Origin: Candidatus Omnitrophota bacterium
GTDB lineage: Bacteria > Omnitrophota > Gorgyraeia > Gygaellales > Profunditerraquicolaceae
Reading direction: 5' to 3'
DNA: 64,000 bases
NCBI GenBank assembly: GCA_030650425.1
Contig: JAUSED010000012.1
Span: forward strand, 64,905 to 128,904
Below, piece after piece: positions 19,695-37,069 of this stretch (position 1 is its first letter; each line of letters begins with the position of its first letter). The notes under the pieces were generated by a model. That model was not told the origin of the DNA. It was given only the letters and a program-made list of their open reading frames with translations, and did no database searches. Both the position numbers and the translations under genes were made by a program.

Positions 19695-19770
19695 GGTGGC
19701 TATAGCTCAATTGGTTAGAGCGTCTGACTGTGGCTCAGAAGGTTTGCGGGTTCGATCCCCGTTAGCCACC
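19695..19770 (+). tRNA. tRNA-His (anticodon GTG) with G-1
   Basis: Extra 5' G pairs with discriminator C. Acceptor GTGGCTA/TAGCCAC, anticodon stem TCTGA/TCAGA with loop CUGUGGC, T-loop TTCGATC. Resembles E. coli tRNA-His. Confidence 0.85.
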
Positions 19771-21199
19771 CTAATTCTAAATGGCGGTTTTCCGCCATAA
19801 ATTTGAAGTCGGAACTATAAGAAACAATTAGGGTTTTGTTATACAGCTTAAGGTTCGATACAATTTTTTGCAAAAAATCACGCTGGGCGTCGGGATTTGC
19901 CTCCGCTGCGATGTAACTGGCTTGGTGAGCAAGAGTTAGAAAGTTTTTGAAGTGTTCGAGCCAGTCCCCGTTACTGTCACCCTTTTCTGAAATATCGAAC
20001 TTCCTGCTAAACAATTCGGCTTTCTTCTGCTTATACTCTTCGTCGGTAATGATACCCTTTAGCGACATGTCCAAGAGCCGCTTTAGCTGGTCGTCAACCT
20101 CTTGCGTTTTCATTTCGCCGCTAATCCGGTTATGAACTTTTTCCGCTGCAAGGAACGCCCGCTCTCGCTCTAACTCTTTTATCATCCAGGCATAGGCATT
20201 GTCATCAAGCGCAACTTTCTCGATGGCCTCTTTGACTTGTTGGGCGAGATTTTCTTCTCTAAGAAAAACAGAAGACTGCTGGCAGGGATCGCGTTTTTTC
20301 GAGCAATGATAGTAGTGATGTCCTTTTTGAACCTCGGCTGTTATTTGGCAGCCACATTCAGCGCACCTTATAAACCCACGGAAGACAAAATAATGTTTCC
20401 TCTCGTAAGAAGGTTTGCTCCTGAATCTTAAAATCTCCTGCACCTTATCAAATAATTCTTTGTTTATAATAGGCGGGTGGCTGCCCTGGAAAATCTCGCC
20501 CTTATACACAAAGAGGCCAAGATAGAATTGATTCGTTAATATCCGGTGGACGTTACTGTACGAAAGCGGGCGCTTGGCTCTCTTGCTCACCAAGCCAGAC
20601 GCAGTCGCCAATTTTCTCAACTCATCAACCGTATATCTTCCTTCAGCGCACAAGGCATACAATCTCTGTACAAGGGGAGAGGCGAGGGGATCAACAGTTA
20701 TTTTACCTCTATCGTTTAAATACCCGATAGGCGCGAATGCGGGATATTCGCCAAGCCTTACCTTTTCGCGCAAGCCACGCTTAGTGTTTTCGCTTAGATT
20801 ATCAACGTAGTATTTACTCTGACCGAAAATAATATTGAGCATAAACTTGCCTTGTGCGCTGTTATCGAAGCGGTAAGTAGGGAAGCGAAGATCAAGGATA
20901 TCCCCGGTATCTACGAGATAGATAATTTTTCCGCCATCTATCGAGTTGCGCGCAAGTCTATCCGGATGCCAGGCGATGATGCCGGACGCCTCACCTTTCT
21001 CAATTCGTTTAATCATTTCGTCAAATATCGGGCGTCCGGGTGACTTAGCTGTCTTGGCTTCTTGAAATTCCTGAACTATTAAGAGGTTTTCTTTCTTGCC
21101 GTATTCGCGAACTTCGTTTAATTGCGACTGAATAGAGAGGACTTGCTTATCTTCTGTGTCGGTAGACTTGCGCGCATACAAGAAATATTTCATCTCCAC
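19715..21199 (-). CDS. Large serine recombinase (resolvase catalytic domain + recombinase domain + zinc ribbon + coiled coil)
   Basis: Catalytic motif YARKSTDTEDKQ near the N-terminus; zinc ribbon CAECGC...HCSKKRDPC; 494 aa. The last ~62 codons run through IR-L and antisense into the 3' half of tRNA-His. Confidence 0.9.
   Translation of the reverse strand: MEMKYFLYARKSTDTEDKQVLSIQSQLNEVREYGKKENLLIVQEFQEAKTAKSPGRPIFDEMIKRIEKGEASGIIAWHPDRLARNSIDGGKIIYLVDTGDILDLRFPTYRFDNSAQGKFMLNIIFGQSKYYVDNLSENTKRGLREKVRLGEYPAFAPIGYLNDRGKITVDPLASPLVQRLYALCAEGRYTVDELRKLATASGLVSKRAKRPLSYSNVHRILTNQFYLGLFVYKGEIFQGSHPPIINKELFDKVQEILRFRSKPSYERKHYFVFRGFIRCAECGCQITAEVQKGHHYYHCSKKRDPCQQSSVFLREENLAQQVKEAIEKVALDDNAYAWMIKELERERAFLAAEKVHNRISGEMKTQEVDDQLKRLLDMSLKGIITDEEYKQKKAELFSRKFDISEKGDSNGDWLEHFKNFLTLAHQASYIAAEANPDAQRDFLQKIVSNLKLYNKTLIVSYSSDFKFMAENRHLELGWLTGIEPANLLSHSQTL
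19773..19901. repeat. Left copy of a perfect 129-bp inverted repeat (IR-L)
   Basis: Reverse complement is identical over 129 bp to 21324–21452. Starts 3 nt after tRNA-His. Encodes 43 C-terminal residues of the recombinase. Confidence 0.9.
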
Positions 21200-22201: not shown

Positions 22202-22423
22202 ATGCAACATAGTCAAGGGGGATTCATGTTAGGTCAAAACATAAAAAAATTTAGAAAAAAGAAAAAATTGACGCAGGATACACTTGCTCGAATTGCAAAT
22301 ATCCCCTATACAAGCATAACGAAGATTGAAACTGGCGTAATAAAGAAGCCTTCTGTTCAGGCAGTTGCTAAAATAGCAAAGGCTTTAGGTATTTCAATAG
22401 ATGCATTAATGGAGGGAGTTTAA
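22202..22423 (+). CDS. XRE-family HTH regulator (candidate R-M controller, C-protein)
   Basis: HTH motif LTQDTLARIANIPYTSITKIETG; small gene immediately upstream of mod. Confidence 0.7.
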   Translation: MQHSQGGFMLGQNIKKFRKKKKLTQDTLARIANIPYTSITKIETGVIKKPSVQAVAKIAKALGISIDALMEGV

Positions 22424-22454
22424 AAATAGGCATATTATACGAGGAGATAAAATT

Positions 22455-24392
22455 ATGCAAAATTTAATCGATGACTTGCTGAAGTTATTAAAAAAAGACG
22501 AGCGTCTTGTTTCGCAAGATGGCGTACTTTTAAAAAATCAAACACAGGAATTGGCGCGCAAAAATGATCCCCAGCTCATAAAACTTTTGCTTTCTGATAA
22601 AGCCATAAAACAGCACTTCTTTTTTGAAGTCGAAAAGGCTCTGATTTTTGATAAAGAAAAATTCGTCCGCTTTGTATCCAATAAACAGTTTTTACCGGAT
22701 TCATATACCACATTTTCTCAAAATATTGGACTATTGCACGAAGATGGAAGGATGTTCAGAGAAATTAATGCTGAAAAAGAAGTTGTTTTGGTTTGGCCTT
22801 ACAAGGATTGTATTTTGGAAGGCGGGATGACCAAAGAAGACCTAAAGCGCGATGAGATTTTTTATAACGAAACCTTGGCGCCGGATGACATTAACCGCTT
22901 GATGGATGCCAAAGTTTTCACCGATTTCAAACGGATAGACAAAAAGGGCGAGCATAAACTGGACGGCTTCAAGCGTGATGAAAGAGGTACAATTAAAGAC
23001 AATTTGATTATTAAAGGAAATAACCTTCTTGCACTTGCTTCGCTTAAAAAAGAATTCGCAGGGAAAGTGAAATTGATTTACATTGATCCGCCATATAATA
23101 CCGGAGGTGCCGTTGATACCTTTACATACAACAATGACTTTGATCACTCCACGTGGTTAGTTTTTATGAAAAATAGGCTTGAAATAGCCAAATCATTTCT
23201 GAGAGAGGATGGATTTATTGCAATTACTATCGATCACGAGGAATTATATTATTTAGGCGCATTAGCCGATGAAGTATTTCGTAGAGAAAATCGGGTTGGT
23301 TTAGTCACAATCTATATAAATCCAAAAGGAAGACAGCATGAGAAGTTCTTTTCTGCTGCGACTGAATACATGCTTATATATGCGAAAAATAAAGTTAGTG
23401 CGAAATTTAATAAAATTACGCTAGATGATGAGATAGCCGAAACTTTTGATTTTTCTGATGATGATGGGGATTATCGCTTGGAAAAATTTATTAGAGCAAG
23501 AACTAGTACGTCGAGAAAAAATAAGCCGGATTTTTATTATCCGATTTATGTAAGTAACGATCTGAAGGATATTACGCTCATTAAGAAACCTGGCTATAAG
23601 GCGGTATTTCCTATCCAAAATGGTGTTGAATACTCTTGGAAAACTATTTCCAAGACATTTGATGAGCGAAATATAAACGGCTTTTTTGTTGCCAAAAAGG
23701 AACAAGGCGAAATTGTTATTTATCATAAATACTACGAACAGCAGGTTTTAAAGAACCTATGGACTGATAAAAAGTATTTTCCTGAATTTCAGGGAACAAA
23801 CTTGTTAAAAAAACTTTTGGGGGCGAACCTGTTTAGTTATCCTAAATCTTTGTATGCGGTGGTAGACACATTAAAGATTATGACCAGCGGAAATGATATT
23901 GTTATGGATTTTTTTGCAGGCTCAGGCACCACTGGGCACGCAACCCTAGCGTTAAACGAGGAAGATGAACAACAGAGGCAATTCATTTTGGTTGAACAAT
24001 TAGATAGACATATTGATGTTTGTATAAAAAGAATAAAAAAAGTCTTGGAACAAAGCACAAAACAGAACAACTTCATATATATGGGGCTCGCAAAATGGAA
24101 CGAGGATTGGATAGAAAAAATAGAAAAAGCTAAGACCGGAAAAGAGCTTGCCAAACTTTGGGACGAGATGAAAGAAATCGCCTTTTTGAGCTACAAAGTT
24201 GATCCAAAAACAGTTGATGCAAATTCCAAAGAATTCGCAGATTTGGGGATTACCGACCAAAAGAAGTTTTTGGTTGAATGCTTGGATAAAAATCAGCTTT
24301 ATATCAATTTGAGCGAGATTGAGGATAAAGAATACGGGGTGAGCAAAGATGATAAAGATCTGAATAAGAGCTTTTATAATGGGAAACAATGA
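22455..24392 (+). CDS. mod: Type III R-M Mod subunit (beta-class N6-adenine DNA methyltransferase)
   Basis: Motif IV DPPYNTGG precedes motif I FFAGSGTTGHA (beta-class order); 645 aa; overlaps the start of res. Confidence 0.85.
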   Translation: MQNLIDDLLKLLKKDERLVSQDGVLLKNQTQELARKNDPQLIKLLLSDKAIKQHFFFEVEKALIFDKEKFVRFVSNKQFLPDSYTTFSQNIGLLHEDGRMFREINAEKEVVLVWPYKDCILEGGMTKEDLKRDEIFYNETLAPDDINRLMDAKVFTDFKRIDKKGEHKLDGFKRDERGTIKDNLIIKGNNLLALASLKKEFAGKVKLIYIDPPYNTGGAVDTFTYNNDFDHSTWLVFMKNRLEIAKSFLREDGFIAITIDHEELYYLGALADEVFRRENRVGLVTIYINPKGRQHEKFFSAATEYMLIYAKNKVSAKFNKITLDDEIAETFDFSDDDGDYRLEKFIRARTSTSRKNKPDFYYPIYVSNDLKDITLIKKPGYKAVFPIQNGVEYSWKTISKTFDERNINGFFVAKKEQGEIVIYHKYYEQQVLKNLWTDKKYFPEFQGTNLLKKLLGANLFSYPKSLYAVVDTLKIMTSGNDIVMDFFAGSGTTGHATLALNEEDEQQRQFILVEQLDRHIDVCIKRIKKVLEQSTKQNNFIYMGLAKWNEDWIEKIEKAKTGKELAKLWDEMKEIAFLSYKVDPKTVDANSKEFADLGITDQKKFLVECLDKNQLYINLSEIEDKEYGVSKDDKDLNKSFYNGKQ

Positions 24393-27300
24393 TGTTATAT
24401 GACGAATTTAATACATATAAAAATTTTGCCGGTGCCGATGTTTTCAAAAATAAGGCGTTAGCAAAATCGGAGATTTTGAAAAGTATCAATCCGGCTTTTC
24501 CTGCGCGTGAATACCAGAAGGAAACGCTGGGACGGTTTTATTATTATTGTGAAGAATATCACCAAAAACAAAAGCCGATCCATTTGATGTTTAATATGGC
24601 GACCGGTTCGGGCAAGACGCTCATCATGGCGGCCAATATTCTATATTTATATCAAAAAGGCTATCGTAATTTCATTTTTTTCACCCGCCTTGGCAATATC
24701 ATCCAAAAGACGAAAGCCAATTTTCTCGATCCGACTTCTAAGAAATATCTCTTTGCCGACAAAATAGTATTTGGCGGGAAAGAAGTAAAAATCAATGAAG
24801 TAGATAATTTTGAGGGCGTCAGTGATGAGGACATAAGCGTTATTTTTTCTACCACATCGCTTTTACACTCTCGTTTTAATTACGCCCGCGAAAATGTTTT
24901 AACTTACGAAGATTTTGAGGATAAGAAAATTGTGTTGATTGCCGATGAAGCGCATAACTTGTCAGCGGAAACAAACGGTAAGATTAGCAAAACTGATGAA
25001 GAAGACCGCCGAAATTGGGAAAACACAGTAATGCGGATTTTGAACGCCAACAGCCAAAAAGACAATGTGCTTTTGGAATTTACGGCTACTGCCCGGCTTG
25101 AACAGGAATACCCGGAAATCATTGAAAAATATAAAGACAAGGCAATTTATCGGTACGATCTTAAAGAATATCGCTTGGACGGATTTTCAAAAGATGTGCG
25201 AACGTTACAGATTGATGCGCCGATTATGGAGCGAGTGCTTTCGGCGGTGATTATTTCACAGTACCGTTTAAAAATAGCGGGAAAGCACAAAATCGCATTA
25301 AAGCCGGTAGTTATGTTTAAGGCCAATAGGGTAAGTATTCCCAAGGAAGGAATATCTAAAGCGTATAATCCGCAAATTGTCGTTTCAAGTATTTTTAAGG
25401 ATTCTTTTCACAAGCTTATTGCCGGGCTCAATGAAAAAGCAATTCAACAGCAAGCCAAAATCAAAGATGACACATTACAAAAGGTTTTTCGATTCTTCAA
25501 AGAGCAAAAAATCTCACTATCTAATTTGGCGGAAGAAATCAAAAATGATTTTGCGCCTGAAAAATGTATAACAGTTGATGATGATAAAGATTTGGAGCAA
25601 AAACAACTTCTGTTGAATTCACTGGAGGATCGAAATAATGAAATTCGAGCGGTTTTTGCTACTGAAAAATTAAACGAAGGTTGGGATGTTCTCAACCTTT
25701 TTGATATTGTCCGTCTTTACAATAGCCGTGACGCTAAAGGCAATAAGCCGGGGAAAACGACGGTTCAGGAAGCACAGCTGATTGGGCGAGGAGCAAGATA
25801 CTATCCATTTACGATTGCGGATTTTACTGATCCATATCGCCGAAAATATGATGCTGATACACAAAATGAGCTTCGGATTTTAGAACAGCTTTATTATCAT
25901 AGCGTTACCAATACCAGATATATTCAAGAGCTAGAAACTGTCCTAGTCCGTGAAGGCATTATTCCTTCTCGAACAGTGCAAAAAGAAATAAGAATAAAAG
26001 CCGATTTTAAACTTAGCGATTTTTGGAAGGAAGGATACATTTTCTTAAATTCACGCAAGCAAAATTTGGGTAAGGATATTTTTGCGCTTTCGGACGCCAA
26101 AGCGGTATTTGATTACAATGCCGAAAGCAATATTTTTCAATTACCGACAAGAGAAGCAATTGAAAAAGATTTATTCGTTGCTGGCGCTGGTGTTGGAGAA
26201 AAAGCTAAGATAGAAATCAAGGAATTTAGACTCATTGACTTAGGAAGGCATGTCATTCGCACTGCTTTGATGAAGATACCTTCTGGGCAATTTAACGAGT
26301 TAAGCAAGATATTCGGCAATATAGAATCTGCGAAAGATTTTATTTCAAACGAAAAATACCTTGGTGGAGTCAAAATAAAAGTCAAGGGCACAAGTGAGCA
26401 GGTAGCGAATCTTCTGCAGGTTGAAAAATTAAGCATTGCCGGATTTGTGGTTGATAAAGTGCTAATAATTGCAACTAAAGAGAAAAAAGAATACTACGGG
26501 ACAAATGAATTTAAGGCTCATTTGGTCCAGAAGATATTTGAAAACGATAAAGTGCTCCAGTTGGACAGTGAAAGCCCGAGAGCGCAAAATATGCGGGATT
26601 TCGATTTTGATAATAAGGAATGGTTTGCGCAAAACGAAATCTGGGGGACTAGCGAGGAAGAGGCATTTTTGCGATTTATTGATGAGGCAATAGCCAAACT
26701 ACAGAAGAAATATCAAGATATTGCCTTGCTCCGCAATGAGCAGTTTTTCAAAATTTACAGCTTTGAAAATGGCGAGCCATTTTATCCGGATTTTGTTTTG
26801 TTTTTGACCGAGAAGAAGACGAAGCAAGAAGTTATGTATCAAATATTTATTGAGCCCAAAGGCGACCAATTCTTGGATGCGCAGAACACCTTTGAACAAT
26901 CTAAAGAAAGCTGGAAGCAAAAATTGCTTCTTGAAATAGAAAATAATCATACTGTTGATTTAAAAATAGAAAACAAGGATTTTCGTTTAATAGGCTTGCC
27001 TTTTTATAATAAGCAATTGCAGGAGAAGTTTAGCGAGGCTTTTGAGCGATTTGTTGATTCGCCCAGACAGGAGAAATCGGATTTATTCTTTAGCGATGTT
27101 ATTCCGGAATCAACTTACTCAGAAGGCTATCTCCCAATTTGCGATCTTCAGGCAGTAGCAACTTCTTTCCGAGAGCAAAAGACTCCTACGATTAAAGGCT
27201 GGAAGCCCGCGAAGAAGAAGTATACAGAGGGTTATTTTATCGCTCAGGTCATAGGCAAATCTATGGAATCGACCATACCTGACGGAAGCTGGTGTTTGTT

Positions 27301-27562
27301 CCGGCCAGACCAAGGCGGTTCGCGTAATGGCAAAATTGTGTTAGCTGAATCACGCAGGGTAACTGATCCCGAAACCCAGCAAAGTTTTACCATCAAGAGG
27401 TATAGAAGCGAAAAGAGGCAGTTTAAGGATGAAACGTGGATCCACACCAAAATAACTCTTTCCCCGGACAATAAAGAATTCAAAGATATCGTCCTAAAAA
27501 ATGTTCGTGAAGATGAATTCCACATAGCGGCGGAGTTTGTGGAGGTCTTGTCAAAAGAATAG
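24389..27562 (+). CDS. res: Type III R-M Res subunit (SF2 helicase + endonuclease) with C-terminal LexA/S24-like autopeptidase domain
   Basis: Walker A MATGSGKT; DEAH box LIADEAHN. The C-terminal ~120 aa align to the LexA C-domain: GKSMESTIPDGSW (Ser motif), NGKIVLAE, and FTIKRY (Lys). Confidence 0.8.
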   Translation: MMLYDEFNTYKNFAGADVFKNKALAKSEILKSINPAFPAREYQKETLGRFYYYCEEYHQKQKPIHLMFNMATGSGKTLIMAANILYLYQKGYRNFIFFTRLGNIIQKTKANFLDPTSKKYLFADKIVFGGKEVKINEVDNFEGVSDEDISVIFSTTSLLHSRFNYARENVLTYEDFEDKKIVLIADEAHNLSAETNGKISKTDEEDRRNWENTVMRILNANSQKDNVLLEFTATARLEQEYPEIIEKYKDKAIYRYDLKEYRLDGFSKDVRTLQIDAPIMERVLSAVIISQYRLKIAGKHKIALKPVVMFKANRVSIPKEGISKAYNPQIVVSSIFKDSFHKLIAGLNEKAIQQQAKIKDDTLQKVFRFFKEQKISLSNLAEEIKNDFAPEKCITVDDDKDLEQKQLLLNSLEDRNNEIRAVFATEKLNEGWDVLNLFDIVRLYNSRDAKGNKPGKTTVQEAQLIGRGARYYPFTIADFTDPYRRKYDADTQNELRILEQLYYHSVTNTRYIQELETVLVREGIIPSRTVQKEIRIKADFKLSDFWKEGYIFLNSRKQNLGKDIFALSDAKAVFDYNAESNIFQLPTREAIEKDLFVAGAGVGEKAKIEIKEFRLIDLGRHVIRTALMKIPSGQFNELSKIFGNIESAKDFISNEKYLGGVKIKVKGTSEQVANLLQVEKLSIAGFVVDKVLIIATKEKKEYYGTNEFKAHLVQKIFENDKVLQLDSESPRAQNMRDFDFDNKEWFAQNEIWGTSEEEAFLRFIDEAIAKLQKKYQDIALLRNEQFFKIYSFENGEPFYPDFVLFLTEKKTKQEVMYQIFIEPKGDQFLDAQNTFEQSKESWKQKLLLEIENNHTVDLKIENKDFRLIGLPFYNKQLQEKFSEAFERFVDSPRQEKSDLFFSDVIPESTYSEGYLPICDLQAVATSFREQKTPTIKGWKPAKKKYTEGYFIAQVIGKSMESTIPDGSWCLFRPDQGGSRNGKIVLAESRRVTDPETQQSFTIKRYRSEKRQFKDETWIHTKITLSPDNKEFKDIVLKNVREDEFHIAAEFVEVLSKE

Positions 27563-27639
27563 ATCAATTTTTTAACGTCAAGTGAAGAGCGTAATAGTGG
27601 GTCACGGGTATTGTATTTTGCATAATTGAGTCGGTTCAA

Positions 27640-28482
27640 ATGGAAATAATTCTAAACATAGTATCGGGTGGTCTTTCAGGCGCATTGTTAGTGTGGCTTT
27701 TGCGCCACTGGATTTCTGAGCGCATAAAAGAAAGCATAAAACACGAGTATGCGCAAAGACTTGAAGCATATAAGGCTGAACTTAATGCCAATATCCAGTC
27801 AGTGTTACATGAACAGCAACTATATCAACTTCGAACGTCTCTTTTTTTTGAACACCAGCGGCTGGCGTTCGCTTCTATCCTTAGCCAGATTGCTGAAACT
27901 AAGCAAAAATGGTTTGAAACTGGATATGATTCAGAGTTGGGGTGGCAAGAGCAGGTTCCAGTACCTACTGGGGAATACGATAAACTGAAAAAGGCATATT
28001 ATGATCATCAGCTTTTTTTAGATCAGGATTGTATTTTTGCGCTTGATTTAGTTCTTGAAGCAATGAGCGATTCATTCCCAGTTCAAGAGGGGGATGGTAC
28101 ATTGCATCATAGAGACTGCGAAGAGCCTTATGAGCGCTTGGTGTTCTTGCAAGAACGAGTTGCTCTGCTTTTTCAGGAAAAAATAGGGCTCAGAGTGTCG
28201 CAAGAAATAAAGACGGAGCTTGCTCTTTTAGGGGCAATCAGATTGCTCAATCGTTATCATTTTAAGGATATAGATCTGCCGGTTAAAGGGCCTTTGAAAT
28301 TGACTGCCGAAGATAAAGCTTTTGATGCTGTGATTAAGGCAGAAAAAAATAAAGCGGAATTGGTTTCAAAGTTAACTGAATTTAGAAATCATCTGGAGAA
28401 GGAAGGTTTCTTTCATGATGCATGGGAAATGGCAACCCGATGCCTTAATCTCCTTTCTGCCACAAAGAAAATTCCTACATAA
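27640..28482 (+). CDS. Hypothetical protein with N-terminal TM helix
   Basis: ORF with coding-like composition only; no motif recognised. Confidence 0.35.
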   Translation: MEIILNIVSGGLSGALLVWLLRHWISERIKESIKHEYAQRLEAYKAELNANIQSVLHEQQLYQLRTSLFFEHQRLAFASILSQIAETKQKWFETGYDSELGWQEQVPVPTGEYDKLKKAYYDHQLFLDQDCIFALDLVLEAMSDSFPVQEGDGTLHHRDCEEPYERLVFLQERVALLFQEKIGLRVSQEIKTELALLGAIRLLNRYHFKDIDLPVKGPLKLTAEDKAFDAVIKAEKNKAELVSKLTEFRNHLEKEGFFHDAWEMATRCLNLLSATKKIPT

Positions 28483-28565
28483 CAAAAACATTGACAAAGC
28501 AGGACAAATAATGTATATTTTAAGTAGAGAATATTATAAATGTCCCAAATCGAGGACAAATTAAA

Positions 28566-29705
28566 ATGGATAGATTGATTATTATAGGCGAGCGCCTCAA
28601 ACGCGCTCGCGAATCGTTGGGATTAACTCAAGAAGATGTGGCCGCCAAGCTTGAGATTGGCAGGCCTCGTTATTCTGATATTGAAAACGGTAAAAGGGAC
28701 GTTCCGTTAAAAGATCTCTACCGGTTTGCTGAATTTTACGGACGTCCGATCGATTATTTCGTTAAAGAAACCTTATTGACTGATAGCGGGTTCAAAGTTC
28801 TTTTCAGGAAGACCGAAGGCGACGAAGAAGTTGCTCGAGTTGTTACTGAATTTGAAAATCTATGTGAGAAAATGTGCGAGCTTGAGAATATATCAGGCGT
28901 TACAGTCCGGCCGCCAGTCAGTCAGGATTATCAATTTGAACGGAATAGAGAATGGTATTGGGGCAAGCATTACGCGGATATTGAAAGAAAACAACTTGAT
29001 CTCGGCCAAGCCCCACTGCGAAATTTAAGCCAGCTTCTCGAAGAGAAACGCGGCCTTAAGATTTTTTATCTGCCTATCCCGCCTGAACGCGGCGTTTACG
29101 GAATGTTTACTTATGATCAGAAGATGGGCGGATGCGTTCTTATTAATTCAAATCCGAATTTTGGCAATCAGCTTTTTTCGCTCGCGCATGAATACGCTCA
29201 TTTTGTGTTCCATAAAGAGAAGTTGGGTATTATTTCGACGGAGCAAGAGAGAAACTCAACAGATGAGAAAGTCGCGAATAGTTTCGCAAGCAATTTCCTA
29301 ATACCGGAAGATACCTTGCGCGATCTTTTTAGTATGAGAATCAAGGAAGATGATGATGTTAAGTCGGAAGATGTTATTTATCTTGCGGATTATTTCGGAG
29401 TTAGCTTTACCGCAATGGTATATCGCCTTAATAATTTAAAACTTATTACAGATAAGATTAAAGATGAACTTATAAATTATACTTGGGTAACCTCCGTTCG
29501 TGAATCGATGGGGATATCTGAGCCGGAGCGTAGCAGATCGAAATTTCCTACCCTTTACCTGCATCTCGCCATTAAGGCCTTTCAACAGGGGAAATTAACT
29601 ACTGCCAAACTCGCCGACTTCCTGGAAATTCCTCTTTATCAAGCGATGGATCTGGGGAGAAAATTAAGAGGGAGTATTCAGGATGGGCCCGGCGACTCTG
29701 TTTAA
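28566..29705 (+). CDS. HTH-XRE / ImmA-IrrE (M78 metallopeptidase, COG2856) fusion protein
   Basis: N-terminal HTH LTQEDVAAKLEIGRPRYSDIENG; C-terminal zinc motif SLAHEYAHFVFH. Confidence 0.8.
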   Translation: MDRLIIIGERLKRARESLGLTQEDVAAKLEIGRPRYSDIENGKRDVPLKDLYRFAEFYGRPIDYFVKETLLTDSGFKVLFRKTEGDEEVARVVTEFENLCEKMCELENISGVTVRPPVSQDYQFERNREWYWGKHYADIERKQLDLGQAPLRNLSQLLEEKRGLKIFYLPIPPERGVYGMFTYDQKMGGCVLINSNPNFGNQLFSLAHEYAHFVFHKEKLGIISTEQERNSTDEKVANSFASNFLIPEDTLRDLFSMRIKEDDDVKSEDVIYLADYFGVSFTAMVYRLNNLKLITDKIKDELINYTWVTSVRESMGISEPERSRSKFPTLYLHLAIKAFQQGKLTTAKLADFLEIPLYQAMDLGRKLRGSIQDGPGDSV

Positions 29706-30177
29706 CGGGAATAAAGTTGTTTTTGATGCCATGGTTATTATTAATTTCCATGGCCTTATTATGCTCGATAAGCTTATCGGTTGGGCTCCAAAAGAAATTG
29801 TTATTGAGAAAAGTATAAGAAAAGAAGCGAGCCATTCAATGAACGGCCCGATAGACCTTGAACCGTATATATCCAGCGGTTCTGTAATAGAAGAAGAAAT
29901 TCACGGCAAGGATCAAGAAGACCTTTTTTATGAGTATCGCAATAAAAGAATAGGTGATGCGGTTATCCATGCGGGTGAAGCCGCTTGCCTTGCGCTGGCA
30001 ATCTCAAAAGGCTACGGCCTTGCCAGCGATGAACTCGTTGTAAGGAATGAATTTAAATCTCGTTGTTCTGGCAAGACGTGCGTTCACTCGTGGGATATCG
30101 TGACAATTTCGCAGAAGCTCGGGTTTATTAATCAAGCCGAAGCGAACGCCTTGAAGAAAGGCTTATATTACGTATAG
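29683..30177 (+). CDS. Hypothetical protein, possible PIN-like nuclease fold (DUF4411-like partner of ImmA fusions)
   Basis: Overlaps the upstream gene by 23 nt. An early acidic residue in VVFDAMVIINF is consistent with PIN strand 1. Weak. Confidence 0.3.
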   Translation: MGPATLFNGNKVVFDAMVIINFHGLIMLDKLIGWAPKEIVIEKSIRKEASHSMNGPIDLEPYISSGSVIEEEIHGKDQEDLFYEYRNKRIGDAVIHAGEAACLALAISKGYGLASDELVVRNEFKSRCSGKTCVHSWDIVTISQKLGFINQAEANALKKGLYYV

Positions 30178-30179
30178 CT

Positions 30180-30518
30180 ATGCGAGGAAAATTTACACTT
30201 AATACCGCGAATATCGATGCCACAGTACCGGCTACCTCCGGCGCTTATGTGCTGGTTAACAGTAGCAATAACGCCGTTTATGTTGGAATGTCAGATACTG
30301 ATTTAAATGGCCGGTTAAAAAATCACCTGCCTGAGCGTGAAGAAAATTCGTGGATAAAGCGAAGCTTTCCGACAGACTTTTACTTTGAGTCGACAGCTAA
30401 TTCGCAAGAAGCTTATAGATTGGAATGCGAATGGTTCCATCAATATCGTCCGAGCTGTAATACCGCGCATCCTGCAAAATTATCTTATAGCTGGGCCTGC
30501 CCAATCTGCGGGTTATAA
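30180..30518 (+). CDS. GIY-YIG domain protein
   Basis: GAYVL...YVG...R...E spacing typical of the GIY-YIG core; 112 aa. Confidence 0.55.
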   Translation: MRGKFTLNTANIDATVPATSGAYVLVNSSNNAVYVGMSDTDLNGRLKNHLPEREENSWIKRSFPTDFYFESTANSQEAYRLECEWFHQYRPSCNTAHPAKLSYSWACPICGL

Positions 30519-30660
30519 ATCCCTGCATTTTCTGAAATCGCTGATAATATTTTGAAACCATCGTTCAGATAATTGCCCCGCTATTCGAAAATTTAGAATA
30601 GTTCGCTTATATAGATTTTGATTGCTCGGGCGTATGGGTATATAAGGGAGTATTATTAAA

Positions 30661-33600
30661 GTGATTCCAATTTTTTTCTGCCATATATGCGGGACAAATG
30701 GTAATTGTAATTTAGTAATTAAGCTAGCCGAGAAATTAACAGGCGATATTGAAGGGATAGACCCTTTTGTTGCTTGTCAAAATGAACGATGGAATTCTGC
30801 CAAAGACTTAAATGCGTCATTAAGCCAATCATATATCTTCATCCCAATTGTCAGTCCAGGATTTAAAGATAGAAACAATTGCACTTCAGAATTAGCGCAA
30901 ACCCGGAATCGAAAACAATTCGGGAAATTTCCTCTTATTATTCCTATTAAATTTAATTGTGGCGATGCTCTTATGAATAATCTTGGTTTTACCATAGATC
31001 AAGAAACGGAACAGGGCGATAAGTGGATAGACTTCTCTAATGAAGTCGAATTTGATTCGAAATATGAAGAATTATATCGGCGGATTCACTACTGGTCAAT
31101 AGACAATGATCTGGTAACAAATAAAGATTTCCACAAAGACCGTAAGGTATTAGATGTTATATTGGGCGAGAATGATCCAACATCCAGCCAGATAAAAATA
31201 GCTATAGATTATTGTCGTAAAGGACAAGAATACAGCCTGTATTTTTTGAAAAATCTTTCCAATCCTAAATGGCTGAGTCATTTGTATGCATCAGGGTTTT
31301 TTGCTTTTAATCCAGTTCCAGTAGAATCAGAAAAAAATGAAGGATTTTACAGTATTCCATTATGGGCAGCTGTTATATTTTTAGAAAAAATTGCTGTGGG
31401 CTTGGGTAAAAAAGATAAAGAAAGAATGCTTGATATTATTCGCAAGGTATCTAAGCCAGCTCCTCCTGCAGTAAAGCAAGATAATTGGAGAACATGGCAA
31501 TCGTTTGTAAAAATTCTCTCAAAGTTACAGATTGATGACATTTTAAGCGATGACATTGAGATGATCGCAGAATGGCTATATAGTAAATTTGATACATCAA
31601 TGGTGGTTATTGAGATTGGAAAAACTCTTTTGCCGAAGGTACTAACAGAAGTAAAAACAGCTGAGGATGCTAACAAGGTTGTTCGGATTATCCAAATTGT
31701 ATTAGATTCTGTCAGAGTTGAAAGAAGACATGGCATGATGTCTCACGGTCTTCAAAAAATGTTTAAAAATAATTCTGATTTACTCGGAGAAAAATGTGGG
31801 TTAGCACTTTTGGAAATTATACGAAACAAACTTGAAAGCGTTGTAGAAGAAAAGGATGATGCATATTGTTATATTTGGCGTCCTGCTATTGAAGATAGCG
31901 AACAAAATGTCGCTTCAGATGAGTATAGGCATATTCTTATTGCAGGTTTTAGGGATATTTATCTTAAATTCGCCTCTTTTCATAATGCAGAAACCTTTTT
32001 GCAATCATGTTACGAGTCGCCCAGAGATATCATCCAACGTATAGCATTTTATGTTATCGGTAAGCTATTTGATAAATATAAGAAATTAGCAGAGGAGATC
32101 CTGCTAAAAGACGCCAATAAAACATTTCTCAAAAGTAATTATCACCACGAGTTATATTTTTTGATCACAAAACATTTCACATTGTTATCAACGGATGTCC
32201 AATCTTCAGTGATTGATATTATTTCTGGCCTGACTGGTGATTGGAAAGATGATTCGGACAAGGATAGATTAAACTGTATGCTTCGTAGACGATGGTTATA
32301 TGCGGTTAAACAATCTGGATACAATATTTCAAATGAGTTAGAAGACAAATATTTTAAAGATATTGAATATAAACCTGAACATCCAGAATTTTTGAGTTAT
32401 ATCGGTCCTGTGTCATGGGGTGATGAATCAATGTTTTCATCGGCAGAGTTATTGTCTAAAGGTGGCATTGAAGAAATGGTTACCTTTTTAAATAATTTTG
32501 AAGGCAAAAATAGATTTGGAGAGACAGCTATACGAGAAGCAGGCCAGTCTTTTAAAGAAGCGATTAAAAATAAGCAGGAAGTATTTGATAATCATTTGCT
32601 TGAGTTTAAAAAGCTTAAATATGAGTATTGGTATTATGCAGTGCAGGCTTTTGAAGAACTCGTGCAAGATAAAAAGACGATTGGATGGGAGAAGGTTTTA
32701 GAGTTTTGCAATGAGATTATTTTAAGTGAAATATTATGGGATGGCAAAGGCAAAAAGAGCGATTACCCGCTTGAGCCAAAAAAAGATTGGATCCCGGCCG
32801 TTATATCAGATTTACTGAGAAAGGGGCTTCAAGAAGATTCAATCATTTTTACAGAATCGCAATATGGGTTAATTGATAAGGTTGTTAGGGTACTGCTTGA
32901 TAAACAACCCAGTACAGCGAGTGGAGATGATAAGGATGCGTTGACAGAAGCGATTAATACTACAAAAGGGCACGTGTTGGAATGTCTCAAGAGTTATGTC
33001 CTAAGAAGATATAGAGATTTTGAAAGATTGCCCGATAAAGGAATCAGGGAGAAAGAATCTTTTTGGAAAGAGGTAGAGCCATTATTTGTTCGGGAGATTG
33101 AAGGAACAAAGGAAGGAAGCTTCGAATTTTCAAGTCTATCCGGTGCTTATTTGCCTAATCTGTATTATTTGAATAAAGATTGGGTTACTTCGAATATTAA
33201 CAATATCTTTCCTACTGAAGAAAAACATTGGCGATGCGCTATGCAAGGATATTCTTACGTGAATACCGTTTATGCGGTTATCTACAATATATTAAGAGAT
33301 AACGGTCATCTCAAACGTGCACTTGATACAAAATTTTCGAACGATCAGACAAGAAGCCGAATTATAGAAAACATAGCGGTATCATATTTAAGGGGACAAG
33401 AGACTATAGATGGTCAAAACAGCTTATTTAAATATATTTTAGAGAAATGGAACCACGATGATATTGAAGAAATAATAAGTCTGTTTTGGTCTCACAGGGA
33501 TGTTGAATTAGACTGCGAACAAAAGGCAAGAATATTTAATTTTTGGCGGCATTGTTTTAATCAGATAAAAGGGAAAGAGGACGCACATAAGGATATTCTT

Positions 33601-33945
33601 TCCGATTTGAATCTGCTAGCGGTGTTCTTTGATCCGTTAACGGCAGAACAGGTGGATTGGTTAAGACAGTCAGTTAAATACGTGGAGGAGCGTTACCATA
33701 GTTCATTCCTGCTGGAATATTTTGATAAATTAGCAGAGAACAATCCCAAAGATGTGGGAAACGTATTTTTAATAATGTTAGAGAAAACCATCCCATGGTA
33801 TAAACAGGAAAATATTCAATCTGTCGTTGAAAAGTTTTATAAAGCAGATTTGAAAAATGAAATTGCTAATCCAATTTGTGATAAATATGCAAGGGCGGGC
33901 TTCGAGTTTTTGATAGAAGTTTATCAAAAATATAACAAGAAATAA
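30661..33945 (+). CDS. Large (1094 aa) protein with N-terminal TIR-like domain and a long alpha-helical/Trp-rich C-terminal region
   Basis: GTG start with AAGGGAG RBS. TIR-like blocks PIFFCHICG (betaA), SYIFIPIVSPGFKDRNNCTSELAQ (betaC-alphaC with the Glu), FPLIIPIKF (betaD). Confidence 0.5.
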   Translation: MIPIFFCHICGTNGNCNLVIKLAEKLTGDIEGIDPFVACQNERWNSAKDLNASLSQSYIFIPIVSPGFKDRNNCTSELAQTRNRKQFGKFPLIIPIKFNCGDALMNNLGFTIDQETEQGDKWIDFSNEVEFDSKYEELYRRIHYWSIDNDLVTNKDFHKDRKVLDVILGENDPTSSQIKIAIDYCRKGQEYSLYFLKNLSNPKWLSHLYASGFFAFNPVPVESEKNEGFYSIPLWAAVIFLEKIAVGLGKKDKERMLDIIRKVSKPAPPAVKQDNWRTWQSFVKILSKLQIDDILSDDIEMIAEWLYSKFDTSMVVIEIGKTLLPKVLTEVKTAEDANKVVRIIQIVLDSVRVERRHGMMSHGLQKMFKNNSDLLGEKCGLALLEIIRNKLESVVEEKDDAYCYIWRPAIEDSEQNVASDEYRHILIAGFRDIYLKFASFHNAETFLQSCYESPRDIIQRIAFYVIGKLFDKYKKLAEEILLKDANKTFLKSNYHHELYFLITKHFTLLSTDVQSSVIDIISGLTGDWKDDSDKDRLNCMLRRRWLYAVKQSGYNISNELEDKYFKDIEYKPEHPEFLSYIGPVSWGDESMFSSAELLSKGGIEEMVTFLNNFEGKNRFGETAIREAGQSFKEAIKNKQEVFDNHLLEFKKLKYEYWYYAVQAFEELVQDKKTIGWEKVLEFCNEIILSEILWDGKGKKSDYPLEPKKDWIPAVISDLLRKGLQEDSIIFTESQYGLIDKVVRVLLDKQPSTASGDDKDALTEAINTTKGHVLECLKSYVLRRYRDFERLPDKGIREKESFWKEVEPLFVREIEGTKEGSFEFSSLSGAYLPNLYYLNKDWVTSNINNIFPTEEKHWRCAMQGYSYVNTVYAVIYNILRDNGHLKRALDTKFSNDQTRSRIIENIAVSYLRGQETIDGQNSLFKYILEKWNHDDIEEIISLFWSHRDVELDCEQKARIFNFWRHCFNQIKGKEDAHKDILSDLNLLAVFFDPLTAEQVDWLRQSVKYVEERYHSSFLLEYFDKLAENNPKDVGNVFLIMLEKTIPWYKQENIQSVVEKFYKADLKNEIANPICDKYARAGFEFLIEVYQKYNKK

Positions 33946-33973: not shown

Positions 33974-35755
33974 ATGAATTTAAATCAAGTCGGAGTTTAT
34001 GTACCGGTATCAGAAGTGTTCCCGGATATACAAAGCAATCTTGAAACTTTCAAAGATATATTGCAACAATTAAGTCGTACTGACACATTATTTTGGTGCG
34101 CAAGAATAAATTTAATTATCACAAATCCTATTGAAAACGGCCATATTTCAAGGCAGCAGGTTGCAATCGACAAATTTTTGACGAAGAGCGAGATTGAGGC
34201 AGTAAATCAATTTGCCATGGCTCATGGCGGGGCTAATAGAGTTACGGTCTTTTTCCGAGGCCAACTCCTTGAATTAATGCGATGGGCATTGCTGTATTGT
34301 CACAATCATCCTAACGATGGAAAGACTTTTGAAGATCCAAATACAAGAAGGATGTTTGTACAGGCTGCACTTATTGCAAGTGATCTTTGGTCAAAGTGGG
34401 TGTATGGAAATAGGTTCTCTTTAGAGGGAGGGATAAAGATTGCAAGGGAAAGATCCTTAGGAGCTATTCGAAAAGCCATTGAGGGCACATCGCTATGTGC
34501 AGAATTGACGAGATCATTTGGAAGGGGATGGACTATTTTTATGGATTATTTTCGTAAGCAATATGGTTTGCTTGCTAGCGAATTTCAGTCCAAAGCAGGT
34601 TTATCAATTGAGGACTATTTTAAATGCCTATTGATTATCACAGTTCATTTTGCCAATCCTAGAAGCAATAATACCGGCATTTTTAATGCAACAACTTTTG
34701 CTGATTCTACACCGTTGAAAGACGTGTTTCAGAAATATATCACATTTGAGTCACAGTCAATAGATGAGTTTAAAAACGCATTATGGGGCAGTGGTATAAA
34801 TAAATTAGAAATGCAATATGAAATGGAATATGATTATTTATCTATGAGAGAAAAACCAATTTTACGTGCTGAGGATAATCGAGCAATTATTTTAGATCCA
34901 ATATTTTATAGCGAAAAAGCAAGTATTGGGCCGTTGTTTGTATTGACAAAGAATAAAGCACGTGGGAAAGCAAACGAGGTTTTTAGTGCCTTCGGCAAAG
35001 CGTTTGAAAATTATTCCTGTGACATTCTGAATAAGATGTTTCCAGATATTAATGCTATCAAACAATTGTTTTGTAATCTGAAAAAAAAGGATTTAAACGA
35101 AAGAGAATCAGAAATAGACGCTTGTATTAATAAAGGCTCTGAGTCGGCCATATTTGAAATAAAAGCAGTTTGGATTCGCGAAGATAAAATATTAAATGAA
35201 AATTATGAGACATATCTACAGCATTTAAGAGAAAAATATGGTGTTGTTGGGCAGCAGGACAATCCAAAAGCGCAAACAATTAAAGGAGTTGGGCAGCTCG
35301 CACGAATATTAAATAATATATTTCGTGAGGAATTTCAGGCAAATAACAGAGAATTTAGTGAAATTGTAACAATTTATCCCATACTATTAGTTTATGATAG
35401 TTTTTTAACCGCGCCAGTTTATGGCAATTTTCTTGCTTCAGAATTTGAAAAATTACTTAAACCGGATCACAAAAGGGGCTCTGGCGAACTCATTAAAGGC
35501 AGATTCACGGTGCATCCCTTAATCATATTAACAATAGAAGATCTAGAAAATTTGGAACTTTCGGTCGAACATTTTAGTTTTTTCGAACTATTATCTGATT
35601 ATTCAACGAGCTGCCCAGACCGTTTGATATCTCTAAAAAACTACATTGCTGACTCGAAATATAATAAACAGATATATCGCAATAAAAATCTTGCCAATAA
35701 GTGTCTAGAGCTATTTAAAGAAGCCAAGCTAGCAATAGCGACAAAAGAGCAGTAG
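33974..35755 (+). CDS. Hypothetical protein (593 aa), unknown function, co-operonic with the TIR-like gene
   Basis: 28-bp gap to the upstream gene; no recognisable motif. Confidence 0.35.
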   Translation: MNLNQVGVYVPVSEVFPDIQSNLETFKDILQQLSRTDTLFWCARINLIITNPIENGHISRQQVAIDKFLTKSEIEAVNQFAMAHGGANRVTVFFRGQLLELMRWALLYCHNHPNDGKTFEDPNTRRMFVQAALIASDLWSKWVYGNRFSLEGGIKIARERSLGAIRKAIEGTSLCAELTRSFGRGWTIFMDYFRKQYGLLASEFQSKAGLSIEDYFKCLLIITVHFANPRSNNTGIFNATTFADSTPLKDVFQKYITFESQSIDEFKNALWGSGINKLEMQYEMEYDYLSMREKPILRAEDNRAIILDPIFYSEKASIGPLFVLTKNKARGKANEVFSAFGKAFENYSCDILNKMFPDINAIKQLFCNLKKKDLNERESEIDACINKGSESAIFEIKAVWIREDKILNENYETYLQHLREKYGVVGQQDNPKAQTIKGVGQLARILNNIFREEFQANNREFSEIVTIYPILLVYDSFLTAPVYGNFLASEFEKLLKPDHKRGSGELIKGRFTVHPLIILTIEDLENLELSVEHFSFFELLSDYSTSCPDRLISLKNYIADSKYNKQIYRNKNLANKCLELFKEAKLAIATKEQ

Positions 35756-35893
35756 TCACTTTGCGTGGCTGTATATAAGATCGCACTAAAAATAAACATG
35801 ATGACCGTATTTGTTTTATGGCTGCAAATAGTTGGAAATAAAACGATAACCAAAATTAATGTGATATCATAGAGATAAACTAGAAGTTTAAAT

Positions 35894-37069
35894 ATGTTAT
35901 CTTTCGAGAAAGAATTTCAAGAAATTGGACATTGTGGTGGGCAGTATACTGTAGATGTAAAAACTGCCGCTGATGGACGTAGAAGCTATCAGTTGGGTAT
36001 GCGGCATTCGCGTCCAACCCCGGCGTCATTTTTTGCTGTTTATTTTCTTCCACAAGGTATTCCTGTTGGCATGATTCAGCTTGGAGGCATTGGGCAAGCG
36101 TGGAATCCTGCGCCAGTTCCCGGTAGTCTATCAATCTTTATTGCTTCAGATACTCAAAGCATGTTTGGTCATCAATGTCAAAGGTGCGGTGGCTACTGGA
36201 GATCAAGATCGTCTCCTGTGCGCTGGCAAATGACATGTCCTTATTGTGGGTTACGAGCTGAAAGCCATGCCTTTTTGACGGAAGGTCAGCTTAAGTATGC
36301 TAAGGCTTGTTGCGAGCTAATAGAACAAGCCCTATCCTCTGATAAAGACGGTGAATCTGTTGTGGATATGGACAAAGTGGCAGATGCAGTAGGAAAAGAC
36401 AGCGAAAAACCAAAGTTTTATTATGCAGAACAAAGCCAGCAGAATAAATACACATGTCCGGTTTGTAAAGAACTTAATGACATACTCGGGCGATATGGCT
36501 ATTGCTCCAGCTGTGGTACATATAATGGTGTTTATGAGCTCGAAAGTGATCTAAAGGATATTCGCGATAAGATTGCAAAAGGCAACCAGTATGAAGATTG
36601 CGCGAGAGATGCAGTAGCCGCTTTTGACAGTTTCGCTCGTCAAATAGTAAAACAGCTGGCAAAACGTATCCCTATGACACCTGCACGACAAAAAGAATGG
36701 ACTGGAAAGCTGTTCCATAATATAAAGCCATGCGCCGATGCCTTAAAAACCGTTTTTGACATTGATGCATTTAAGAGCTTTAAACAGGACGATATTAGTT
36801 TTGCTGTTTTTATGTTTCATCGAAGGCACATTTATGAGCATAACGGGGGCGAGGTTGATGAAAAGTACATTAAAGATAGCGGGGACACCTCTGTGCGTGT
36901 TAAGCAAGTTATACGCGAAAGCTCCCAAACAGCAAATAGAATTGTTGGTCTTGTTTCCAAGATGGCGCAAAATATTTCTGATGGATTTCATGAGATTTTT
37001 CCGGCTGAAGATATGCCGATTAAGCTCCAGCAGAATTCAAGGAAGAGCAAGGTCGCGACTGGCGTTTAA
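35894..37069 (+). CDS. Hypothetical protein (391 aa) with two zinc-ribbon motifs; GC-richer than its neighbours
   Basis: CQRCGG...CPYCG and CPVCK...CSSCG; codon usage is more GC-rich than flanking genes. Confidence 0.35.
   Translation: MLSFEKEFQEIGHCGGQYTVDVKTAADGRRSYQLGMRHSRPTPASFFAVYFLPQGIPVGMIQLGGIGQAWNPAPVPGSLSIFIASDTQSMFGHQCQRCGGYWRSRSSPVRWQMTCPYCGLRAESHAFLTEGQLKYAKACCELIEQALSSDKDGESVVDMDKVADAVGKDSEKPKFYYAEQSQQNKYTCPVCKELNDILGRYGYCSSCGTYNGVYELESDLKDIRDKIAKGNQYEDCARDAVAAFDSFARQIVKQLAKRIPMTPARQKEWTGKLFHNIKPCADALKTVFDIDAFKSFKQDDISFAVFMFHRRHIYEHNGGEVDEKYIKDSGDTSVRVKQVIRESSQTANRIVGLVSKMAQNISDGFHEIFPAEDMPIKLQQNSRKSKVATGV

Follow-up and report, generated by a model that had tools for sequence, protein, structure and literature searches.

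We describe here a three-gene cassette in a 64-kb stretch of the genome of a Candidatus Omnitrophota bacterium (contig JAUSED010000012.1, positions 64,905 to 128,904; this whole stretch is called the window below, and coordinates are counted from its first nucleotide). Its first open reading frame (ORF1) encodes an Xre-type helix-turn-helix (HTH) repressor fused to an M78 (ImmA/IrrE) zinc peptidase, its second (ORF2) a PIN nuclease and its third (ORF3) a mini GIY-YIG nuclease. In our judgement this is probably a mobile, autoregulated toxin–antitoxin or abortive-infection cassette of the Xre–COG2856 + PIN (RosmerTA-like) class, in which ORF1 is predicted to be an autorepressor and an RmrA-like antitoxin. 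ORF1 and ORF2 make up a mobile two-gene core; ORF3 is an accessory gene that was gained once, in a crown clade, and then lost or degraded many times. The cassette is a variant of a described toxin–antitoxin and anti-phage class, and its core architecture is already known.

Conservation and mobility of the cassette

Related loci (n = 70) came from metagenome-assembled genomes (MAGs) and metagenomes. In every locus where the two genes were readable, an ORF1 homologue lies immediately 5′ of the ORF2 homologue (44 of 44 loci, 29 distinct sequences), an adjacency that spans ORF2 identities from 98% down to 30% and that comes, in most loci, with the same overlap of 23 nucleotides (nt) between the two genes. 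When the window was compared with the 70 loci by blastn, homology began at 28484-28491 and, in relatives with three genes, ended at 30518-30520. The flanks of the cassette differ almost every time, and include radical-SAM plus type IIG restriction–modification genes, BrxL, hisG/accA and metal-resistance genes. Because such sharp limits of homology fall within unrelated neighbourhoods, we regard the cassette as a discrete mobile unit.

The three genes share the plus strand, and the first-pass annotation, which was made from the letters of the window, had placed the ORFs, the 23-nt overlap and a gap of 2 nt correctly to the base. The ATG of ORF2 is set back by 23 nt from the end of ORF1 and is in the +1 frame relative to it, and a Shine–Dalgarno (SD)-like GAGGGAG stands 8 nt 5′ of that ATG. 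ORF3 begins with an ATG 2 nt past the ORF2 stop and no SD-like sequence is visible for it; this close succession in the absence of a visible ribosome-binding site suggests translational coupling of ORF3 to ORF2. Neither promoter nor terminator was found between ORF1, ORF2 and ORF3. Chance ORFs are ruled out, since each of the three has many homologues of the same length and pairwise ratios of non-synonymous to synonymous substitution rates (dN/dS) are 0.03-0.11 in all three genes, i.e., under purifying selection. The identical proteins in GenBank are MDO8663068-70 (Candidatus Omnitrophota MAG, contig of 235 kb), where ORF1, ORF2 and ORF3 are named “XRE family transcriptional regulator”, “hypothetical protein” and “GIY-YIG nuclease family protein”, respectively.

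The ORF1/ORF2 overlap (29683-29705) keeps its length across most of the family. Overlaps between toxin and antitoxin genes typically measure 1, 4 or 8 nt, and 23 nt is unusual by comparison. A programmed +1 frameshift joining ORF1 and ORF2 was considered, given the conserved overlap, and was set aside; no slippery motif is seen in the sequence.

A repressor–protease fusion

The single polypeptide with an XRE HTH and a COG2856/M78 peptidase carrying HEYAH, as first annotated, is confirmed by Pfam matches to HTH_3 and Peptidase_M78 (Table 1). In an alignment of 36 ORF1 homologues (27-94% identity), H208, E209, Y210, H212 and E234 are invariant in every member. Since neither HEYAH nor the third zinc ligand ever varies, the M78 peptidase is presumably active throughout the ORF1 family.

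Among the hidden Markov models (HMMs) of PADLOC, ORF1 matches 16 for RmrA, the best with E = 4.3e-28 over amino acids (aa) 9-358, as well as PDC-M69B (2e-28), capP (2.5e-18) and capH (6e-8, aa 6-85). The AlphaFold2 model (predicted local distance difference test, pLDDT, 84) is made of an N-terminal HTH, a linker at 70-90 (pLDDT 54-62), a long helix at 87-110 with the peptidase core, and an all-helical part at 296-371. Foldseek ranks IrrE/PprI structures first, the complex 8sln with single-stranded DNA (ssDNA) among them, and the peptidase core superposes on IrrE/PprI; the HTH gives template-modelling (TM) scores of 0.8-0.9 to ImmR (0.89) and to the restriction–modification controllers C.BclI and C.AhdI. 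The best PDB sequence match, in two stretches and with E = 7e-19, is 9vzy_A (393 aa; entry name “HTH cro/C1-type domain-containing protein”), and the next among M78-type entries is CapP.

The resemblance of the HTH to ImmR, the membership of M78 in the ImmA family and a recombinase gene 7 kb 5′ of the cassette would fit a fused ImmR/ImmA-type switch that governs whether the mobile element around the cassette is excised or transferred. We hold this to be very unlikely: the same cassette occurs in many contexts that have no recombinase, always tied to the PIN gene, and the operator described below was not found near the recombinase gene.

The C-terminal helices of ORF1 are possibly the toxin-binding part of the protein, either UPF0175-like or IrrE-HTH-like. 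UPF0175 matches below the Pfam threshold recur at the C-terminus in 15 of the 36 homologues (best E = 1e-4), and a comparison of this domain with PDB sequences gave no informative match. The UPF0175 matches could reflect a generic HTH-like helical bundle, e.g., the middle domain of IrrE.

Between the HTH and the long helix, the linker harbors a candidate self-cleavage site. R81 is invariant in the 36 homologues and is always preceded by a hydrophobic residue, the motif being LFR in most homologues and QFR or HLR in distant ones. CapP cuts CapH at the F82–R83 bond, where the dimerisation helix begins, and the R83A variant of CapH prevents cleavage by CapP (bioRxiv 10.1101/2022.04.27.489752). 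The alignment of the capH HMM to ORF1 extends through residue 85, and helix 87-110 comes after R81. In view of the invariant arginine in the linker, the position of the CapH cut and the reach of the capH HMM, we propose that ORF1 may cleave itself between F80 and R81.

A PIN nuclease missed by profile libraries

No direct HMM match was found for ORF2 in Pfam, NCBIfam, PHROGs or PADLOC. Searching the PDB with a sequence profile of the ORF2 family returned noise alone (E about 0.5), so a fold comparison was required. The AlphaFold2 model, built on 29 sequences, has a pLDDT of 94.3 and a predicted TM-score of 0.89, and Foldseek places 2mdt (SSO1118) at rank 1 (E = 2e-3, probability 1.0, TM 0.50 by query and 0.65 by target), after which come PIN structures by the dozen, VapC toxins among them, also with probability 1.0. 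2mdt is the structure listed for the COG2405/DUF3368 cluster by Matelska et al. (PMC5499597). The same work describes the PIN active site as an Asp after strand 1, an acid on the N-terminal end of the crossover helix and another acid after strand 4. ORF2 has acidic residues at these canonical positions: D15 follows strand 12-14, E99 starts the crossover helix 97-109, and D116/E117 follow strand 112-114. In the family as a whole, D15, E48 and E117 never vary, position 99 holds either of the acids E and D, and D116 is near-invariant; E48, too, occupies a canonical PIN position. We are confident that ORF2 has a PIN fold, and we place it with COG2405/DUF3368. The “PIN-like first strand” that had been read in this 164-aa protein was right, the top structures for its AlphaFold2 model being PIN proteins.

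Nearly all of the ORF2 homologues (n = 90) have 163-166 aa, and IMG calls several of them “predicted nucleic acid-binding protein”. Precomputed matches to PF11848 (DUF3368) exist for 29 of the 90; they are mostly weak, that of homologue P0086 being unmarked (E ≤ 1e-5), and none exists for the window protein. With the local copy of Pfam, even P0086 gives no PF11848 match. A DUF4411-type identity, suggested at first, was rejected: PF14367 is matched neither by ORF2 and four homologues (E ≤ 10) nor by 29 members of the family (E ≤ 0.01), and it is DUF3368 and 2mdt that come up instead.

Predicted promoter and operator

The cassette begins with its own predicted promoter and operator (Table 1). 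The palindrome is unique in the window, where 0.03 chance matches are expected. The same −35/−10 arrangement was seen in 17 of 29 distinct upstream regions, and in about 17 distinct promoter regions the arms of the palindrome are kept while its 6-nt spacer is variable. Relatives at 54-99% ORF1 identity keep the −35/−10 elements, the half-site in the promoter spacer and both arms, and the sequence upstream of −35 is variable among them. Elsewhere in the genomic island that surrounds the cassette the palindrome was not found; the half-site GGACAAAT has 5 occurrences versus 2.6 expected, which is not significant. Such a conserved pattern is what the operator of a dimeric HTH autorepressor would show.

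At the other end, the hairpin across the ORF3 stop, which comes from RNA folding, lies in a region with a z-score of −0.7, which is not significant, and was missed by a simple terminator scan.

Table 1. Predicted features of the cassette, with positions in the window.
Feature	Position	Strand	Description
Whole mobile cassette	28484-30520	+	Promoter/operator and three genes; limits of nucleotide homology
Sigma-70-type promoter	28491-28519	+	TTGACA-17-TATATT; 11/12 consensus positions; best site in 27500-30800
Operator-like half-site	28502-28509	+	GGACAAAT in promoter spacer; second copy at 28554-28561, adjoining the start codon
Palindromic operator candidate	28541-28558	+	TGTCCC-N6-AGGACA; between −10 and start codon, overlaps ribosome-binding site
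ORF1	28566-29705	+	379 aa; Xre-HTH, M78 (ImmA/IrrE) zinc peptidase and C-terminal helical domain
Xre/Cro-type HTH DNA-binding domain	28596-28760	+	aa 11-65; Pfam HTH_3 E = 2e-16
Candidate self-cleavage site F80/R81	28803-28808	+	Inferred; low-confidence linker after HTH, before helix 87-110
M78 metallopeptidase domain	29043-29432	+	aa 160-289; Pfam Peptidase_M78 E = 1e-20, 74 bits (cut-off 22)
HEYAH	29187-29201	+	aa 208-212; within M78 domain
Third zinc ligand E234	29265-29267	+	Within M78 domain
C-terminal three-helix domain	29550-29678	+	aa 329-371; AlphaFold2 helices 329-340, 346-353, 357-371
ORF2	29683-30177	+	164 aa; PIN-domain nuclease, COG2405/DUF3368 group; predicted toxin/effector
ORF3	30180-30518	+	112 aa; mini GIY-YIG nuclease; accessory second nuclease
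Weak terminator-like hairpin and U-run	30507-30533	+	Across ORF3 stop; uncertain; 6-bp stem then UUUUCU

An accessory GIY-YIG nuclease

The GIY-YIG domain of ORF3, already noted in the first-pass annotation, is genuine: Pfam PF01541 matches with 35.2 bits versus a cut-off of 22.6 (E = 1.6e-8). Seventeen aligned homologues keep the catalytic residues, Y23, Y34, G36, E82 and N94 being invariant and R45 present in at least 90%. A Cys/His cluster at the C-terminus (C93, H97, C107 and C110) is likewise invariant and is, judging from these residues, a probable zinc knuckle. An HMM search of 1.8 billion representatives returned 881 clusters at E ≤ 1e-3, a number that falls to 104 at E ≤ 1e-10; these clusters, formed at 50% identity, are mostly stand-alone proteins of 105-125 aa with the same layout. 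This mini GIY-YIG family (P0229-P0376) is apparently undescribed. It has a conserved C-terminal Cys/His motif, CNxxHP…WxCPxCG, a few members with N-terminal extensions or a duplication (P0283), and heterogeneous contexts.

In the cassette family, ORF3 is restricted to one crown clade (ORF2 identity of at least about 54%) and is absent from the deeper branches. The 29 distinct cassettes comprise 8 with an intact ORF3, 14 without one, 3 in which it is truncated or frameshifted, 2 in which a contig end cuts it and 2 that could not be scored. Locus L018, with an ORF2 90% identical to that of the window, has no ORF3, and its homology ends exactly at 30179. In L004 and L025, a 388-nt in-frame deletion (29860-30248) joins residues 1-59 of ORF2 to residues 25-112 of ORF3, next to an intact ORF1 at 95% identity. 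Such a loss of both nucleases beside an intact ORF1 is the pattern expected of toxins. The resulting ORF2-ORF3 fusion (L004:5001-5447; L025:4001-4444) is named by NCBI as a 148-aa “GIY-YIG nuclease family protein”.

It is a real possibility, although not the one that we favour, that ORF3 stands outside the switch altogether, as a promiscuous stand-alone mini GIY-YIG gene, selfish or serving an independent defence, that landed once and hitch-hikes on the transcript. Its absence from the deeper branches speaks for this, as do losses or degradations that we count at least about 8 times in the crown clade: a clean loss in L018, truncation or frameshift in L020, L037 and L041, and absence in L011, L021, L022 and L023. 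The wider family of 881 clusters being mostly stand-alone points the same way, and in the four contexts of distant relatives that we inspected no M78 or PIN neighbour was found. Against it, the identity of ORF3 follows that of ORF2 across loci, from 96% to about 48%, and where ORF3 is intact its dN/dS is 0.04-0.11. The spacing between ORF2 and ORF3 is tight, conserved at 2-17 nt, and no promoter or SD of its own was found for ORF3. Neither was a sign of an independently mobile element seen: ORF3 relatives have 0 matches in phage records and two weak ones, at 29-35% identity, in plasmid records.

The two nucleases downstream of the fusion, taken together as the module in the first-pass annotation, do not hold up as a unit, the GIY-YIG gene being found in one clade only and often lost or decayed there. 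That annotation had staked its proposal on conservation of the downstream genes beside ImmA–HTH fusions elsewhere; the PIN gene is conserved in this way, the GIY-YIG gene only partly. We also considered, and rejected, the rule that a nuclease of GIY-YIG or HNH type always comes after the PIN gene, because the HNH of L058 belongs to a separate effector of CBASS (antiphage signalling by cyclic oligonucleotides), and other loci have unrelated genes or none in that place.

Some loci carry further neighbours. In a distant clade (ORF2 identity about 38%), the L058 pair lies 51 nt 5′ of an HNH–SAVED Cap5-type CBASS effector (L058:868-3703), and only a short N-terminal remnant of the HNH–SAVED gene is left in L061 and L062. 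In L019, a second, unrelated HTH + M78 fusion of 401 aa (L019:813-2018) lies 170 nt 3′ of a cassette copy devoid of the GIY-YIG gene.

Relation to known systems

Fusions of COG2856 with Xre that are linked to toxins of PIN or RelE type were predicted to be a three-component toxin–antitoxin system (Makarova 2009, PMC2701414), and COG2405 is among the PIN families co-transcribed with HTH + DUF955, an example being Geobacillus GYMC61_2169 (Matelska 2017, PMC5499597). The cassette resembles this published class in that a fused Xre HTH + HEXXH gene stands directly 5′ of, and on the same strand as, a PIN-like gene, in its COG2405/DUF3368 partner and in a patchy, mobile distribution. It differs in that its PIN gene belongs to a 164-aa subgroup missed by HMM libraries and in its third gene, the GIY-YIG, which is absent from the published description as far as we found; the published class is purely computational.

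Systems of this kind with a Zn-peptidase antitoxin have been named RosmerTA and are anti-phage, and a deletion of rmrA was unobtainable (Millman 2022, bioRxiv 10.1101/2022.05.11.491447). The ImmA node has been validated as an antitoxin hub associated with PIN-like domains (Ernits 2023, PMC10440598), where the validated RmrT is a membrane-depolarising toxin. Like RosmerTA, the cassette places an HTH + Zn-peptidase antitoxin, matching RmrA HMMs at near full length, beside a variable toxin in a defence island. Unlike it, ORF2 matches no PADLOC RmrT model and is a PIN nuclease rather than a membrane-depolarising toxin, and there are three genes. The suggestion of a novel module, put forward at first, does not hold for the architecture, as the Xre–COG2856 + PIN combination, including COG2405, had been published in PMC2701414 and PMC5499597, and the anti-phage function as RosmerTA.

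With CapH/CapP, DdrO/IrrE and ImmR/ImmA the cassette has in common an M78 peptidase paired with an Xre-type repressor; the N-terminus of ORF1 aligns to capH, and its hydrophobic-Arg motif, a candidate cleavage site, falls at the position of the CapH cut. In ORF1, on the other hand, repressor and protease are fused. ORF1 does not have the peptidase–HTH–GAF architecture of CapP and IrrE, and ssDNA sensing is not expected to work alike. In contrast to CapH/CapP, the ORF1 gene is the first of its own operon and is not divergent from it, and the output would be a co-encoded toxin and not a separate immune operon. CapH–CapP fusions were reported beside the defence island system associated with restriction–modification (DISARM) and beside CBASS, one of them near a vapC-like gene (Lau et al., bioRxiv 10.1101/2022.04.27.489752).

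A last comparison is with UPF0175 (COG2886)–COG2405 pairs. UPF0175 was reported only beside COG2405 PINs (PMC5499597); the cassette has the same PIN subgroup (2mdt) and the recurrent weak UPF0175 matches in the ORF1 C-terminus, the difference being that the putative neutralising domain would be fused here to the protease-repressor. As far as we found, three elements are apparently unreported: the PIN subgroup, a GAF-less fused protease-repressor with its operator and F/R motif, and the GIY-YIG add-on.

A defence-island context

The cassette is held by a low-GC island of ~18 kb (about 19.7-37.5 kb), with housekeeping genes beyond it. The island contains, in order, a small Xre gene, the mod and res genes of a Type III restriction–modification system, a 280-aa orphan, the cassette, a TIR–Dsr1-like gene, a weak GapS1-like gene and a PDC-M14A-like gene. 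A defence role of the cassette is plausible because it sits among these defence genes.

At the 5′ side, the gene of a large serine recombinase, on the minus strand (19715-21199), overlaps tRNA-His (19696-19771) and is followed by about 1 kb of non-coding, GC-rich, repeat-like sequence, an Xre HTH ORF (22227-22424) and the Type III mod gene; the segment 19696-22424 is probably the integration end of the island. The Type III Res subunit (24389-27562, plus strand; PADLOC REase_III E = 2e-111) has at its C-terminus a Peptidase_S24 domain of LexA-like type (aa 929-1049, E = 2e-9), an unusual fusion that might link restriction to self-cleavage or SOS-type control. The 280-aa ORF (27640-28482, plus strand), which has an N-terminal hydrophobic helix and lies outside the cassette limit at 28484, has no match in any library. 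On the 3′ side, a plus-strand gene at 30661-33945 encodes 1094 aa with a Dsr1 body (PADLOC E = 1e-146, aa 133-1093) and an uncertain GTG start; its N-terminus gives TIR_2 below the cut-off (E = 7e-5) and no SIR2 match was returned, so that it may be a Dsr-like defence gene with TIR swapped for SIR2. Two further candidate defence genes on the plus strand, at 33974-37069, encode a protein of 593 aa that matches GapS1 weakly (E = 1e-7 in NCBIfam, well short of the cut-off) and a Cys-rich protein of 391 aa (PDC-M14A E = 5e-8). Elsewhere in the window, a tmRNA gene at 10581-11004 (plus strand) has the predicted tag peptide ATPVMGMPLFAGVMPVFGN, with tRNA-Leu, tRNA-Pro and tRNA-Arg nearby.

These surroundings bear on two other explanations. 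One takes the cassette as a plain addiction module that stabilises the island by post-segregational killing, with neither phage defence nor signal-responsive proteolysis. The island is indeed bounded by tRNA-His and a serine recombinase, and the layout is that of a classic type II system, autorepressor first and toxin gene overlapping. We nevertheless find it unlikely, since a passive antitoxin would not need the apparently active metallopeptidase that is invariant in 36 of 36 homologues. In addition, related RmrA systems are anti-phage (PMC10440598), and there are defence-gene neighbours both here and at other loci, such as BrxL in L016, Cap5 in L058 and restriction–modification genes in L008.

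The other explanation makes ORF1 mainly a CapH–CapP-like, damage-responsive regulator of neighbouring defence genes, with the PIN gene as a side component. The capP and capH matches of ORF1 and the fusions reported beside DISARM and CBASS would agree with it, as would the TIR–Dsr1-like gene that begins 143 nt 3′ with no convincing terminator found after ORF3, and the L058 pair 51 nt 5′ of a CBASS effector. This is, in our opinion, less probable still. Downstream genes vary in nearly every locus while ORF2 is constant, and homology stops at about 30520; the operator palindrome occurs solely at the cassette's own promoter. Moreover, CapH/CapP are normally divergent from the operon that they regulate and CapP has a GAF domain, neither of which applies here.

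A tentative model of the switch

The toxin–antitoxin or abortive-infection reading agrees with the idea of a protease- and repressor-controlled toxin in the first-pass annotation, which fits the RmrA matches, the strict synteny and the location in a defence island. In this best model the toxicity of ORF2, its neutralisation by binding, the self-cleavage of ORF1 and its site, the trigger and the substrates are points that we infer, and the mechanistic details are tentative enough that we would expect some of them to be wrong. At rest, ORF1 dimers would occupy the GGACA/TGTCC operator over their own promoter and ribosome-binding site, keeping the three co-transcribed genes low, and ORF1 would neutralise the PIN nuclease, probably via its C-terminal helical domain. 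Candidate triggers are phage infection or DNA damage. Once triggered, the M78 peptidase would become active and cut ORF1 in cis or between subunits, most plausibly between F80 and R81; removal of the DNA-binding head would derepress the operon, and the antitoxin would be inactivated or titrated. The freed PIN nuclease would then degrade RNA, leading to growth arrest. ORF3, made from the same transcript with its translation apparently coupled to that of ORF2, would be a dispensable second effector that cleaves DNA.

Several points weigh against this interpretation. Neither ORF2 nor ORF3 matches RmrT in PADLOC, and ORF2 has no PADLOC match at all (E ≤ 0.1); because ORF2 matches no RmrT model, the cassette falls outside RosmerTA as currently defined. 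The control of ORF2 by ORF1 could be purely transcriptional, with no binding between the two proteins. The UPF0175 likeness of the ORF1 C-terminus stays below the Pfam threshold. Incomplete active sites are known in some COG2405 members (PMC5499597); the ORF2 family keeps the full set of residues. ORF1 has no GAF-like beta-rich domain, the ~85 residues past its peptidase being all helical in the AlphaFold2 model, and no Cys was found between HEYAH and E234. The ssDNA-sensing groove between domains, which the GAF domain forms in CapP and IrrE, and the cysteine switch of many CapPs are therefore missing from ORF1, and their known activation mechanism is not simply transferable to it. Finally, the frequent losses of ORF3 imply that it is unnecessary for the core function.

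A bolder version would make the crown-clade cassette a true three-component defence system, built around a GAF-less, self-cleaving fusion of CapH–CapP type that responds to a signal which is not ssDNA. What it sets free would be two nucleases acting in concert, one on RNA and one on DNA: the COG2405 PIN protein and a mini GIY-YIG with a zinc knuckle, the latter depending on the PIN protein or on ORF1 for its targeting. The whole would be a RosmerTA subtype unseen by current defence-finder models. We regard this version as improbable, though less so than the addiction module.

Implications

Current understanding is not overturned by this cassette. The operator, the F80/R81 motif and the GAF-less protease are handles on how fused protease-repressors of RmrA type are triggered, an account of which we did not find in the literature. 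The repeated gain-then-loss of a second nuclease bears on whether toxin–antitoxin cassettes acquire effectors or mere passengers. Detection of the cassette is also uneven: defence-finder models recognise the HTH–M78 antitoxin, whereas Pfam, NCBIfam, PHROGs and PADLOC all miss the PIN protein encoded beside it. Because this partner goes undetected, such cassettes would be under-counted in candidate phyla such as Omnitrophota.

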